The position numbers and the translations under genes are program-made. 42,260 nt of DNA, from contig CAZWPQ010000003.1 of the NCBI GenBank assembly GCA_964636085.1, positions 67,916 through 110,175 on the forward strand. Direction: 5' to 3'. The notes beneath the pieces were generated by a model. It ran no database searches. It was not told the DNA's origin and was given only the letters and a program-made list of their open reading frames with translations. Below, one piece after another: positions 20,679-34,619 of the stretch (position 1 is the stretch's first letter; the number at the start of each line of letters is the position of its first letter). Origin of the DNA: an uncultured Nitrososphaerota archaeon (lineage in GTDB: Archaea; Asgardarchaeota; Njordarchaeia; Njordarchaeales; Panguiarchaeaceae).

Positions 20679-21314
20679 TTGCTTTTTGGGCAAAGGAGTA
20701 AGGAGAAGAGAATATTGGAACGCGCCAAGAAGCTTAGAGACATGATTGAGCTAAGCGGGCCTCAACGCGTCGATATGGGGACAATCCGCCAGACACTAAG
20801 AGAAATAGCTGATGATGTTGCTCGGCTCTCAGAGATTGAGAGGGATAGACTAGCGAGACAGATTGATGATATTTTTGAGGAGAAAATAGCTATATTGCGG
20901 GGTTGGAGGGAGTCAAGAGTACGAAAAATTAGGAGCATGCTTAAAGAACTCTCCTTACTAAAGAAGGTTCCCCGGAACAAGTTTATACGGGTCAAAATGC
21001 TTGATAATCAAATTAAGTTGGATGATGCATTACTACATGCCTTGGAGAACATTAGGGACATTCTGGTGGATACCGTACAGAGGGGGGTGGATCCCGAAAC
21101 GGCTTGGAGCAAGGTTTATAGGGTCACAGAGGTTATTACTGGCTATGTTGAGGGACTCACAGAACGTGCTGAGGCCTATACCGAGCTTACTGAGGAAGAA
21201 ATATCCGAGGCAGAATTGGAGGAGCTCTCTACATCATATGGGATAAAGGAGGCTGAGGAGGCACCAAGTAAGGAGATAAGAAAGATGCTTGAAAAGTATG
21301 GTTTAGAGGAGTAG
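20679..21314 (+). CDS. Coiled-coil protein, possible divergent ESCRT-III/Snf7-like subunit
   Basis: N-terminal LFG plus basic helix, helical core, acidic C-terminus ending in an amphipathic EIRKMLEKYGL helix; first gene of the Vps4 operon. Confidence 0.4.
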   Translation: MLFGQRSKEKRILERAKKLRDMIELSGPQRVDMGTIRQTLREIADDVARLSEIERDRLARQIDDIFEEKIAILRGWRESRVRKIRSMLKELSLLKKVPRNKFIRVKMLDNQIKLDDALLHALENIRDILVDTVQRGVDPETAWSKVYRVTEVITGYVEGLTERAEAYTELTEEEISEAELEELSTSYGIKEAEEAPSKEIRKMLEKYGLEE

Positions 21315-21315
21315 T

Positions 21316-21903
21316 ATGGGGATAGGTGAGAAGCCCTATACCTATATGATGGACACGCTTAGGAAAATTATTAGAAAGGTTGAGGAAATAAGTACTGATT
21401 GGTGGTGGTTTGAGCAGGGATCAATGCCAGTAATCCAGGTTAGGAGGCTTGTAACAAATGGCGAAATAAAACTTGATTGGACGCCAAAGGTACCGGTCGT
21501 GCATGGATTAAAGATTATATATAACAACTTCGATAAGATTGGTGAAATACCCCAAGAAAAGCGCTTAGGTATAGCCATAAAATCTGCCCAGGATCTCTAT
21601 GCAGTGTTGCTTGCCGTAACATATATAATGGAGGCACATGATCTAGCCGAGAGGCTAAATAAATTCAAAGAAAAGTTATCAAGGATGCGTCCTGATGCCG
21701 TCGAGGTTTTTGTTGAAGAAATGCGGAGATTTATTAGCAGGCTCAGAGAAACACTTCTAAGCAACATAATGTCTTGGCCTAACGTGAAAAATGAGTTTGT
21801 GAAAATAGTTGAATCAATGATCAAGAAAACAGAAAGAATCCTGGGTGAGGGTATCCCTCGAGAGGTAGAAGAGGTTAAGAAAAAGGAACTTGTGGGTGCA
21901 TGA
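21316..21903 (+). CDS. Hypothetical helical protein, 'WW-x2-QG' family; paralogue of 29168..29701
   Basis: DWWWFEQG...VIQVRRL...WTPK aligns with 29168..29701. Confidence 0.7.
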   Translation: MGIGEKPYTYMMDTLRKIIRKVEEISTDWWWFEQGSMPVIQVRRLVTNGEIKLDWTPKVPVVHGLKIIYNNFDKIGEIPQEKRLGIAIKSAQDLYAVLLAVTYIMEAHDLAERLNKFKEKLSRMRPDAVEVFVEEMRRFISRLRETLLSNIMSWPNVKNEFVKIVESMIKKTERILGEGIPREVEEVKKKELVGA

Positions 21904-32364: not shown

Positions 32365-33191
32365 TGTGTATGTATGTCATACAAATATCCAAAGAAGTTA
32401 TGAACATAGTGAATGAGGTATGTAGACGGATACGGAGCGAGTGGTATGCCCTTTCACTTGGCACTTATCAAAGAAAGAAGGACATCCACATTTTTTGTAT
32501 CATTGACCTATTGATCCCTGAACAGGTTGCATCTTTTACTCATGTTGAGATCCCGCCTCAAGTAAACGTAGAGGTCGTGAGTAGAATTGAGGCTATTAGA
32601 AGCGAGGACAAGGATATGTTTTTGCTTGGTATGCTTCATTCTCATGGCGAATTTGATGTGTTTCATTCAAATGAGGATCTAAGAAACATTGACACGATAT
32701 TTGAATGTTTTTCCTCATATCTTCCATCATTTTATGGAATTGAAAGCTTAGTTGGTGTTTTCAAAGAAAAAATTGTAAATTTAGAGCCAATGATCGAAAA
32801 TAATTCTTTTAGAGGCATAAAAATGGATTTTGGGGCGACGAAAATCGAGATAGACTTCGGCGTCTTGATAAGGGATCCAAATTTCTTTGTAAAGTGGTAC
32901 AAGCATTTTTATGATATAAAATGTCTCTTCGAGGTGCTAAAAACGGTTTATAAGACATCGCCAATAATAAAGAATGTATCCAAGAATAAGCTGTATTTGA
33001 TTCCCAGTGTAGTCGTGAACAATAGGGGGGATGTCTTAGGGGAAGTGTTTATTTTTGAATCCAAAGCGGATGGTCTCTATAAGAAAACCGAAAAAGCTAA
33101 AATAGAAACAACTAGTATCTCTAAAAAGCCATATTTTCTAAGCAAGGAAAGAGTATCAGATATTATAGGAAGAGTAAAGGGAGTGATATAG
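32361..33191 (+). CDS. JAB/JAMM (MPN+) metallo-isopeptidase
   Basis: Complete JAMM motif E27...H93-S-H95-x7-S103-x2-D106 (LGMLHSHGEFDVFHSNED), plus IPEQV. Confidence 0.88.
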   Translation: MMCMYVIQISKEVMNIVNEVCRRIRSEWYALSLGTYQRKKDIHIFCIIDLLIPEQVASFTHVEIPPQVNVEVVSRIEAIRSEDKDMFLLGMLHSHGEFDVFHSNEDLRNIDTIFECFSSYLPSFYGIESLVGVFKEKIVNLEPMIENNSFRGIKMDFGATKIEIDFGVLIRDPNFFVKWYKHFYDIKCLFEVLKTVYKTSPIIKNVSKNKLYLIPSVVVNNRGDVLGEVFIFESKADGLYKKTEKAKIETTSISKKPYFLSKERVSDIIGRVKGVI

Positions 33192-34619
33192 CTGGGAAGT
33201 AGAAGTATTTTTGATAGGCAGACATACATAAGCTGGTGGAGTCAAGACAAGATACATAATACAAGTGTATATCTAATTGTGGATGAGCCATTAGGCTACC
33301 TAGCAGCGATTTCTCTAGTGGCTGTTGGTTATGGCAAAATATATATAATAGGATCCAGATTTGTGAAAGATTTCAAAATCTTGTTCTATGACTATACTGG
33401 AAATTTCCCCGAGGGGGTCTCCGAATTTGTAGATATTTATCTGGGCAGATATTTAATGGACTACGGCATAGAGATTATGCCAGTAACGATAAACTTGGTA
33501 TCAGATAGGGCGTTAAATTTAATAAAATGGATAATACATGACGACGACAATGAGAGAAAAATTTTACTAGACTTTTCGAATAGCCCAACAGTCAAATTTT
33601 ATGTCAGAAAACTCGCAAGGATGTTAGAATTAGATACATATATCGTATCTCTCGCAGGGGACCTTCGTTTTTACTGTTTCCCACGAGAATATAGTGAGGA
33701 TACTTCCGATATGCACAGAAAAATATATATAAGAGAACCCCCAGGATTTCCAGAGATATTTTCTAGAGCCGTAAAAGCTCAATCTGGCATAAGACTTGAC
33801 GAGCATCTATATTTGATGGCTAGTGGACTTGCATGTGGAGAGATTACCATGAATATACAGGACGAACAGTATGAAATCCACACACCAACACGAGAGATAG
33901 TATACCCATTTGAGGGACTACCCAAGTTCAGGAGAACCACTAGCTATTTTAGAAAAGTAGCGATTGTTGGATGTGGTGCTTTGGGCACATTTTATTCTAT
34001 TCAAATGGCTCTACTGATAAACATGAGGTTGCTTCGTGTAAAAGAGGTGGTATTTATAGATCCAGACGAGATAGAACTCGTAAATTTTAATAGACAGGTA
34101 TTATATTGGGGCAATACTGTTAAAGAGCCGAAGGCATATGTGATAGCGGATAGATTCCAGAGAATGGTATATGACCCCGTGATAACATACTACCATGAGG
34201 CCCGTTTTTCTGAAGTAAAGGATCGCTTGAGAGATGTTGATTTAATTGTGGAGGGAGTCGATACATGGGAGGCTAGAAAGGAGATAGCAAGATTTGCCAT
34301 AAAAAACAAGATACCGCTTATTACATCGGGAGTTGAGCTTCTTGCTGGGCATGAAACATATTACCAACCAAATAGGACATATTGTCCATTTCATTCCATA
34401 TCGTTAGATAAAAAAGTAGATCCCGTCAATACTACTGGATGCCTAAGGATAGATCCCTCCGTTATATTTACCAACATCACTATAGCCTCATCTGCAATAC
34501 TGAACTCCTTAGTGACCCAAGAACCGCTCAATGGCGTGATGTATTATAGTCTTAGGGGTGAATATGGTATCTATAAACGCTTTAGGCTCGAGAAATACAC
34601 GGGGAGCTGTGGGGACTAG
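33192..34619 (+). CDS. E1/ThiF-family activating enzyme with tandem degenerate and active adenylation domains
   Basis: C-terminal half: KVAIVGCGALG, DPDEIELVNFNRQ, K and GVDTWEAR. The frame is open upstream of the called GTG 33279 to CTG 33192, adding FDRQTYISWWSQDKIHNTSVYLIV; GGAGTGA RBS precedes the CTG. Confidence 0.82.
   Translation: MGSRSIFDRQTYISWWSQDKIHNTSVYLIVDEPLGYLAAISLVAVGYGKIYIIGSRFVKDFKILFYDYTGNFPEGVSEFVDIYLGRYLMDYGIEIMPVTINLVSDRALNLIKWIIHDDDNERKILLDFSNSPTVKFYVRKLARMLELDTYIVSLAGDLRFYCFPREYSEDTSDMHRKIYIREPPGFPEIFSRAVKAQSGIRLDEHLYLMASGLACGEITMNIQDEQYEIHTPTREIVYPFEGLPKFRRTTSYFRKVAIVGCGALGTFYSIQMALLINMRLLRVKEVVFIDPDEIELVNFNRQVLYWGNTVKEPKAYVIADRFQRMVYDPVITYYHEARFSEVKDRLRDVDLIVEGVDTWEARKEIARFAIKNKIPLITSGVELLAGHETYYQPNRTYCPFHSISLDKKVDPVNTTGCLRIDPSVIFTNITIASSAILNSLVTQEPLNGVMYYSLRGEYGIYKRFRLEKYTGSCGD

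Follow-up and report, generated by a model that had tools for sequence, protein, structure and literature searches.

A putative ESCRT-like gene cluster lies beside a candidate Bil-like cassette for ubiquitin-like conjugation in a genus of Asgard archaea

The stretch of DNA analyzed here, hereafter the window, comprises 42,260 nt (positions 67916-110175 of contig 3) of a metagenome-assembled genome (MAG) of 2.4 Mb and 83% completeness, referred to below as G000, which comes from an Asgard archaeon of the Njordarchaeia type. [quoted passage not shown] The analysis establishes the gene content, motifs, gene order, and the conservation and recurrence of the neighborhood. Both modules are real, and a functional coupling between them is plausible. 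We tentatively favor the reading that a divergent ESCRT-like module and a Bil-like Ubl cassette are functionally coupled in this organism.

The initial annotation of this DNA had described the two operons as lying on the same strand about 840 nt apart, with deoC 24 nt after the last gene of cluster 1, and had assumed a separate promoter for the second operon. The layout is as described: the stop at 29701 and the start at 30540 are 838 nt apart, and the deoC ATG is found 24 nt past the stop (Table 1). The genes of cluster 1 are separated by gaps or overlaps of 10 nt or less, except for the long TTG-start version of g5, a gene that probably begins at the ATG behind the g4 stop codon and not at TTG 23617. 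Archaeal promoters are outside the coverage of the promoter scan, and promoter and terminator elements were judged by eye; on this basis, the T-run and the TATA-like boxes in the 136-nt spacer between deoC and u1 are a putative deoC terminator and a putative cassette promoter, which fits the assumption of a separate promoter.

Table 1. Position, strand, and main properties of the genes and spacers at the locus. G001 and G002 are genomes of the same genus, L058 is a metagenome contig, and L060 and L061 are loci of the type found in the sister family f3.
Feature	Position	Strand	Properties
Two surface-protein genes	17637..20395	+	products of 534 aa and 342 aa; in G001, G002, and L058 also collinear with the block
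Upstream spacer	20396..20678	+	283 nt, AT-rich, with TTTTATATTA and TTTGATATAA runs; putative cluster 1 promoter region, judged by eye
g1	20679..21314	+	211 aa helical protein; N-terminal MLFGxKK; acidic C-terminal tail ending EKYGLEE
g2	21316..21903	+	195 aa; g10 paralog (tblastn cross-matches, alignment); invariant WW, G, PK, N, and W
g3	21900..22481	+	193 aa ESCRT-III-like helical hairpin protein; directly upstream of g4
g4	22485..23666	+	393 aa Vps4/CdvC-like AAA ATPase; N-terminal helical domain, single AAA domain, C-terminal helix
g5	23668..24810	+	about 380 aa; N-terminal half TPR/SNAP-like; listed ORF begins at TTG 23617
g6	24811..25485	+	224 aa polytopic membrane protein (hydrophobic sequence); orthologs in congeners
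g7	25495..27216	+	573 aa; zinc ribbon at the N terminus, helical middle part, FG-GAP beta-propeller
g8	27220..27834	+	204 aa; orthologs in congeners and in L060/L061
g9	27831..29171	+	446 aa; probable winged-helix repeats (repeat pattern judged by eye)
g10	29168..29701	+	177 aa; g2 paralog; last cluster 1 gene
deoC	29726-30403	+	deoxyribose-phosphate aldolase; NCBIfam TIGR00126, E 7.5e-65, 218 bits vs cut-off 117
Spacer deoC-u1	30404..30539	+	136 nt; T-run, TTTATAAA and TTATATATAA elements
u1	30540..31001	+	153 aa candidate ubiquitin-like modifier; first gene of the JAB/E1 operon
u2	30976..32364	+	462 aa; C-terminal half candidate E2-like; His350-Pro351...Arg360...Cys363-x-Gly365
u3	32361..33191	+	276 aa JAB/JAMM metalloprotease; Prok-JAB E 6.7e-5, 23.2 bits vs cut-off 25
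u4	33279..34619	+	446 aa E1-like adenylating enzyme; N-terminal extension of about 225 aa and ThiF domain

The ATPase g4 carries the AAA domain of Pfam (PF00004, E 4.6e-35) and matches the NCBIfam model for CdvC over residues 4-387 (E 1.6e-59), where its 201.7 bits do not reach the equivalog cut-off of 650; on the AAA core, the CDC48 model of NCBIfam scores slightly above CdvC (E 7.3e-69). Pfam Vps4_C was matched at E 0.0043 with 17.4 bits, under the cut-off of 21.3, and no Pfam MIT match was obtained for g4 itself at E up to 0.01. Among distant relatives, the ATPase from genome G139 matches Vps4_C above the cut-off (E 1.1e-5, 25.8 bits) and that from G112 matches Pfam MIT with 23.6 bits, under the 30-bit cut-off (E 5.5e-5). 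With Vps4_C above its cut-off in the G139 relative, the g4 family has the single AAA domain and the C-terminal Vps4_C helix of a Vps4-type protein. Moreover, g4 and the canonical Vps4 of G017, whose gene adjoins a Snf7-positive gene, could be aligned end to end, from the first 75 residues through to the Y..W helix at the C terminus. These 75 N-terminal residues also align across the g4 clade, and the Y..W helix was aligned in 11/11 sequences, one of which is a canonical Vps4. A tree of 21 rows placed the g4 type in a clade of its own (support 100/100), apart from Cdc48 D1 and D2 and from canonical Vps4, of which the tree took in the G017 protein only, too few to establish a sister relationship with the g4 clade. 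The only other g4 relatives in G000 are double-AAA Cdc48 proteins, and both kinds of ATPase, canonical Vps4 and the g4 type, are present in G017, G008, and G139.

The g3 gene is found immediately 5' of the ATPase gene in all loci examined, that is, in the genus, in G008, G017, G139, G112, and G170, and in the loci L057, L058, L060, and L061. The AlphaFold2 (AF2) model of g3 (pLDDT 66) shows a long hairpin formed by helices 10-44 and 51-91 followed by shorter helices and, with a length of about 200 aa, has the ESCRT-III layout. When the g3 family was compared by hhalign with six Snf7-positive Asgard proteins, 98 hairpin columns were aligned with a probability of 51% and an E of 1.5e-4, and the g3 profile weakly matched Snf7 chain 5fd9 among the PDB sequences (E 0.28). 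A Foldseek search with the g3 model returned no match at E up to 0.001, and Snf7 was matched in none of six g3 orthologs at E up to 1 and in none of 24 g3-family representatives. The family is small, with 23 close proteins and 33 representatives at E up to 0.001 among 1.84 billion proteins, and none of them carries a name. We consider g3 to be probably a very divergent ESCRT-III relative.

The remaining genes of cluster 1 are less easily placed. No match in Pfam, NCBIfam, or PADLOC was found for g1, g2, g8, u1, or u2, and g3, g5, g9, and g10 gave isolated matches far under the cut-offs. Orthologs of g1 are present in all four congeners with the region assembled and in G008, and distant orthologs sit after the ATPase in G139, G017, G112, and G170. 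An hhalign comparison of g1 with Asgard ESCRT-III aligned the C-terminal tail alone (probability 15%, E 0.0018), and g1 and g3 have only the MxFxxKK start in common; perhaps g1 is a second ESCRT-III-like subunit. The profile of the paralogs g2 and g10 gave nothing significant against PDB sequences, and the ESCRT-I Vps23 chain 2p22_A, which appeared at E 0.68, was given no weight. No cluster 1 gene matched the ESCRT-I/II families of Pfam. Orthologs of g5 occur in four congeners and G008; the G139 homolog matches TPR_12 (E 1.2e-4) and SNAP (E 0.0017), and the window g5 itself has no Pfam match. In L060 and L061 the g6 gene is located upstream on the opposite strand. The domains of g7 were recognized as FG-GAP (E 6.1e-8), FG-GAP_3 (E 6.4e-8), and Zn_ribbon_3 (E 0.0015). 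The g9 profile found weak matches among PDB sequences in the GntR-type Lmo2241 (E 0.0021, residues 261-376) and the winged helix of MntR (E 0.036, residues 216-268).

Two further observations come from other loci. In G009 (L068/L048, C3), the neighbor of a Snf7-positive gene resembles g7 by its FG-GAP similarity (tblastn E 1e-5); propeller proteins may thus also accompany canonical ESCRT-III in this taxonomic order. Downstream of the f3-type cluster 1 in L061, a gene at 13854-14357 on the - strand encodes a protein with a longin-like N terminus (Clat_adaptor_s E 2.1e-6) and a winged-helix C terminus.

The four genes of the second cluster have the appearance of a conjugation pathway. Bil operons have the order Ubl, E2, JAB, E1, and their Ubl has a conserved Gly and a short tail that is trimmed by the JAB protease, as described in the text of the preprint 10.1101/2023.09.26.559546. 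We call the predicted Ubl conjugation cassette u1-u4 Bil-like because its gene order and its Gly-plus-tail arrangement match those of Bil operons. Gly147 of u1, within G[RH]VG, is invariant in 5/5 sequences and in 6/6 when f3 homologs are included. It is followed by a tail of 0-11 nonconserved residues, one ortholog stopping exactly at the Gly, and the f3-type homologs terminate in MGG plus nine residues. We found no Pfam or PDB-sequence match for u1, and its Atlas model (pLDDT 0.39) had no usable neighbors; u1 is a candidate ubiquitin-like modifier with a hypothetical beta-grasp fold. The u1 ortholog of G002 (L035, G002:C1, about 14090) contains a run of X in its translation that corresponds to masked or undetermined bases.

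In u2, the residues His350-Pro351, Arg360, and Cys363-x-Gly365 are invariant across two families and, by eye, resemble the HPN...Cys signature of E2 enzymes. In the AF2 model of u2 (pLDDT 79.6), one helix is followed by four strands and a loop, and then by helices around the motif. Foldseek gave no match at E up to 0.001, the profile found nothing relevant among PDB sequences, the rows of a wider fold search reached residues 7-258 alone, and an Atlas search of residues 266-462 returned no usable match. The C-terminal half of u2 is a candidate E2-like domain, its fold being only weakly hinted at. The JAMM residues of u3 (E27, H93-S-H95, S103, and D106) are invariant in 7/7 aligned sequences, its closest solved structure is the Rpn11-like 6fjv (E 0.015), and it is the sole Prok-JAB match in a scan of G000. 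The ThiF domain of u4 (PF00899, E 2.5e-27) has GxGxxG and NRQ motifs seen by eye, its closest solved relatives are UBA6 (E 8.6e-8), ThiF, and SAE2, and u4 is one of four ThiF genes in G000. In PADLOC, u4 matched the CBASS E1-E2 model (E 2.6e-9) and, more weakly, BilD (E 6.6e-6); u1, u2, and u3 had no PADLOC match at E up to 0.01, and the curated Bil models were therefore not matched.

None of the 15 proteins of the locus matched Snf7, ubiquitin, UQ_con, or ESCRT-I/II families in Pfam, so the locus is not a canonical ubiquitin-ESCRT cluster. In whole-genome Pfam scans, Snf7 was matched in 0/5 genomes of the genus and in 5/5 other Asgard genomes scanned (G006, G008, G009, G017, and G139). Ubiquitin (PF00240) and UQ_con (PF00179) were matched in 0/5 genomes scanned, three of which belong to the genus; the UQ_con scan is a weak one in which no control genome was positive.

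The arrangement of the two clusters is conserved in the genus. The order g1..g10, deoC, u1..u4 is retained in 5/5 species, on single contigs in G001 and G002 and joined across breaks inside g8 and inside u2 in G003 and G004, and the metagenome contig L058 has the same order. Protein identity within the genus falls to 32-35% for u1, u2, and g9. The flanks are rearranged, as the collinearity with G001 stops right after u4 and the genes farther upstream are scattered in G001 and G002. The orientation of deoC was found to differ: it occupies the same position and is antiparallel to the clusters in four of the five species (G001, G002, G003, and G004) and in L058, and it is co-directional with both clusters in the window genome alone when compared with L035, L036, L037, L040, and L058. 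This points to one inversion of the single gene, during which the clusters stayed together, and excludes co-transcription of both clusters through deoC as the conserved state.

Whether the two surface-protein genes upstream of g1 belong to the block is uncertain. Neither has a Pfam match. The first is one of three paralogs of 534-561 aa (5780-7465, 15619-17223, and 17637-19241), all without a Pfam match, that consist of a signal or transmembrane segment, an ectodomain, a second transmembrane segment, and about 140 aa of cytoplasmic tail; the second (19367-20395), which follows the 534-aa paralog, encodes the 342-aa surface protein, rich in NxS/T. Elsewhere in the window we noted a Ras-family small GTPase, one of the eukaryotic signature proteins typical of Asgard archaea (635-1225, - strand; PF00071 E 2e-40), TYW1 at 36183-37211 with several radical-SAM genes close by, and a large clostripain-family protein (39536-42259, + strand, open at the window end; Peptidase_C11 E 1.4e-51) with bacterial Ig-like domains.

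Both clusters were also found outside the genus. In the sister family f3 (G006 and G010), the cassette has the same four-gene order, with products of 148 aa, 437 aa, 301 aa (JAB), and 459 aa (E1). In these loci, L065 (G006:C131, 1839-6776) and L066 (G010:C37), a fifth co-directional gene follows the E1 gene and encodes a protein of 281-291 aa with a weak DUF2764 match. A second adjacency of Ubl enzymes and module 1 genes occurs in G139, which belongs to another, distant Asgard family. Its locus L087 (G139:C84, 8470-17893) contains genes for a ThiF E1 (E 4.8e-54), an antiparallel UFC1-like E2 (E 6.3e-10) with an N-terminal extension, and a JAB protein (E 1.7e-8), all within 3 kb upstream of a g3-like gene and the ATPase; these are followed, in order, by genes for a g1-like protein, a 274-aa product, a g5-like TPR protein, a 119-aa product, and an S8 subtilase. 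The E1, E2, and JAB of G139 are not orthologous to u2-u4. As G139 has four ThiF and four JAB genes in 2.6 Mb, such a trio is unlikely to have come to lie within 3 kb by chance, the odds being about 1/100 by our rough estimate. In G112 and G017, too, as in G139, an S8 subtilase follows the module in the same operon as the ATPase. In L088 (G170:C516) and L089 (G112:C130), the opposite strand just upstream of the g3-like and ATPase genes carries two DO-GTPase1/2-type genes and genes for proteins larger than 1000 aa.

We hypothesize that module 1 is a noncanonical ESCRT-like machine built around a hexameric Vps4-like ATPase, g4. The helical-hairpin subunits, g3 and perhaps g1, would polymerize on a membrane and be taken apart by g4; ESCRT-III itself is disassembled by Vps4 through an MIT-MIM contact. 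The accessories would be the membrane protein g6, the zinc-ribbon/beta-propeller protein g7, the winged-helix-repeat protein g9, and the two paralogous small proteins. In the cassette, the u3 protease would cut the short tail of u1 and bare Gly147, the E1 u4 would adenylate that residue, and the E2-like domain of u2 would accept u1 on Cys363 and hand it to lysines of the targets, from which u3 could also remove the tag. The tag would then feed module 1, either by marking cargo or by regulating its subunits. In this scheme, every biochemical step of which we infer, as we do the coupling of the modules, the pairing would be a parallel of the ubiquitin-ESCRT link made from different proteins in a genus where canonical ESCRT-III, ubiquitin, and a UBC-type E2 were not found.

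The case for coupling is drawn from the conserved block and its independent recurrence in G139. Also counted in its favor are the single Prok-JAB match of G000, which is u3, the scans of the genus in which Snf7, ubiquitin, and UQ_con were not matched, and the published ubiquitin-ESCRT link of Asgard archaea. A number of observations weigh against it. The clusters are unlinked in f3, and their distributions differ. Around the cassette of G006 and G010, about 5 kb upstream and 2.7 kb downstream are free of g genes, and around the f3-type module 1 (L060 and L061), 7.8 kb upstream and 1.5 kb downstream are free of u genes. In a survey of 400 Asgard genomes, the g3 profile matched 11 and the u2 profile seven, and the overlap consists of the five genus genomes only: u2 was not matched in the g3-positive G008, G017, G112, G139, G140, and G170, and g3 was not matched in the u2-positive G006 and G010. 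The discordant genomes are all incomplete MAGs, and G008, without a u2 match, yet has the cassette E1 on a 4.3-kb contig. In G112 and G170, no E1 or JAB gene lies within 10 kb of the module. The five genus genomes represent one lineage, so the 5/5 conservation is a single evolutionary observation, and the antiparallel deoC in four of the five species implies that the clusters are separate transcription units, each needing its own promoter. The individual assignments count on this side as well. The AAA core of g4 is 46% identical to D2 of the Cdc48 from the same genome vs 37% to canonical Vps4, Snf7 (PF03357) was not matched in g1 or g3 at E up to 0.01, and the wider fold search with g3 ended in ties with unrelated hairpins. 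For u2 the E2 fold, and for u1 the beta-grasp fold, is hypothetical, and so is the binding of u1 to, or its modification of, the products of module 1.

Much of this evidence can equally be claimed by the explanation that the modules are independent and are neighbors by descent alone, the arrangement having arisen once in the ancestor of the genus and persisted since, with the cassette serving other targets and module 1 operating without a tag. In addition to the separation in f3, the differing distributions, and the restriction to one genus, this explanation has on its side that a housekeeping gene, inverted in most species, stands between two clusters with a promoter region each, and that the two surface-protein genes are equally collinear, which makes the conserved block larger than the two modules. 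Nevertheless, the block is intact despite rearrangement on both flanks and despite the low identity of some of its members, and the G139 locus joins module 1 genes to nonorthologous E1, E2, and JAB genes at odds that speak against coincidence. Canonical Asgard ESCRT clusters, too, sit with ubiquitin genes; this established link, on which the initial annotation had relied, is in print in the text of PMC11188069 (Makarova et al. 2024). We regard descent alone as a serious alternative, slightly less likely than coupling. The earlier suggestion of a parallel module built from different parts is partly supported, namely by the noncanonical parts, by the adjacency in all five genus species, and by that in G139, and it is not supported as a general rule: the outcome that had been named as refuting it, unlinked and independently distributed operons in relatives, was seen outside the genus, in f3 and in the differing distributions among the 400 genomes. 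The accompanying caution about the intervening deoC and the separate promoter was well placed and can be sharpened by the antiparallel deoC of four species.

A further explanation is that both modules are antiviral or conflict systems in a defense island and that the cassette tags virion proteins in the way of Bil while the ATPase module is an accessory device for stress or defense and not for sorting, which we consider distinctly improbable. It would account for the Bil order of the cassette, the tail of its Ubl, and the weak BilD match of u4; for the S8 subtilase in the operons of G017, G112, and G139, which presumably recalls IetS; for the DO-GTPase pairs and very large proteins upstream in G112 and G170, the former presumably reminiscent of NTPase-based conflict systems; and for the rare and patchy occurrence of the g3 family. 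It could also appeal to the matches of g4 to PADLOC IetA (E 1.2e-29) and NCBIfam IteA (E 2.3e-27). However, these scores, which are far below those for Cdc48 and CdvC and, for IteA, below the cut-off as well (96 vs 510 bits), are general AAA similarity. The block occupies the same place in every species of the genus, unlike typical variable defense islands, PADLOC and Pfam scans found no integrase, transposase, or other defense gene in the window, the window module has no subtilase, and three of the four cassette genes have no PADLOC match.

Very improbable, finally, is a Cdc48-derived unfoldase with coiled-coil adaptors, for instance in quality control, for which the Ubl would be a degradation or extraction tag, as ubiquitin supplies the tag for Cdc48/p97: the nearness of the g4 core to Cdc48 D2, the lack of a Snf7 match in g1 and g3, the commonness of the hairpin fold, and the JAB gene beside an AAA gene, recalling Rpn11 and the proteasomal ATPases as does the best solved match of u3, are outweighed by the Vps4-type rather than double-AAA layout of g4, the MIT and Vps4_C matches of its relatives, its clade apart from both Cdc48 domains, the hhalign match of g3 to ESCRT-III, and the membrane protein in the operon.

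That ubiquitin tagging is linked to ESCRT sorting is regarded as a hallmark of eukaryotes and as part of their Asgard inheritance. If the coupling favored here is true, the locus would provide an independent natural experiment on the reasons for which tagging is paired with membrane scission, and Bil-type conjugation, known from bacterial antiviral defense, would extend to a housekeeping-like archaeal setting. The locus may also bear on the losses of Vps4 and Snf7 that PMC12411855 proposes for parts of the Njordarchaeia, since such counts depend on family models by which proteins such as g3 and g4 are missed. A more far-reaching proposal, which we think unlikely, is that Asgard archaea possess a second ESCRT-like machine, defined by g3, the distinct Vps4-like clade, and g1/g5, that was wired to a Ubl at least twice with unrelated enzymes and that replaces the canonical pathway in this genus. 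If that were so, tag-directed membrane remodeling would have been arrived at repeatedly and not invented just once on the way to eukaryotes.

The comparison with known systems brings out what is shared and what is not. IetAS, from Gao et al. 2020, is reportedly composed of an AAA ATPase and an S8 protease, and to our knowledge it has no hairpin protein or MIT-type domain. The likeness lies in the ATPase and S8 subtilase that share one operon in G017, G112, and G139 and in the IetA match of g4, whereas the window module lacks a subtilase and scores against IetA/IteA as any classic AAA domain would. The Cdv system of TACK archaea (CdvA/CdvB/CdvC) combines ESCRT-III-like proteins and an MIT-AAA ATPase in an operon that module 1 resembles, and the CdvC model spans the full g4. 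Unlike in Cdv, g4 scores 202 vs 650 bits, no CdvA-like gene was recognized, and FtsZ/tubulin is present in 5/5 genus genomes; since division need not depend on module 1 in such cells, a role of the module as a cell-division machine was set aside.

With bacterial BilABCD of Type I/II, as described in the text of the Bil preprint, the cassette shares the gene order, the Gly and tail, the N-terminal extension of the E1 before an active ThiF domain, and the lack of an E3. It differs from Bil in the motif of u2, HP...R..C-x-G vs the C..H given for BilB in the text of 10.1101/2023.09.26.559546. It also differs in its archaeal host, in having no PADLOC match for BilA, BilB, or BilC and a weak one for BilD, and in the length of the E2-like u2, which is about three times longer and has extra N-terminal domains. 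Moreover, the cassette is fixed in the genus beside a Vps4-like module and not in a defense island, and any antiviral role is hypothetical here.

Canonical Asgard ubiquitin-ESCRT gene clusters are reportedly the subject of Hatano et al. 2022 (PMC9192718). Like them, the present locus has a Vps4-type ATPase beside ESCRT-III-like subunits that are small and helical, accessory proteins of the probable winged-helix, zinc-ribbon, and coiled-coil types, E1, candidate E2, and deubiquitinase neighbors, and an Asgard host. Unlike them, it has no Pfam match for Snf7, Vps25, Vps28, EAP30, UEV, ubiquitin, or UQ_con, its g4 clade is apart from the canonical Vps4 of G017, and it combines a 153-aa Ubl bearing a post-Gly tail with a 462-aa E2-like protein and no RING E3. 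The arrangement was not described in the literature searched, and the words Njord, ThiF, JAB, and Ubl are absent from the text of PMC11188069; the supplementary tables of that paper (Vps4 set) and of PMC12411855 (S13 and S20) and Table 1 of the Bil preprint might list the proteins. Taken together, the comparison indicates that what is new here is a known type of association built from different, partly unrecognized parts.

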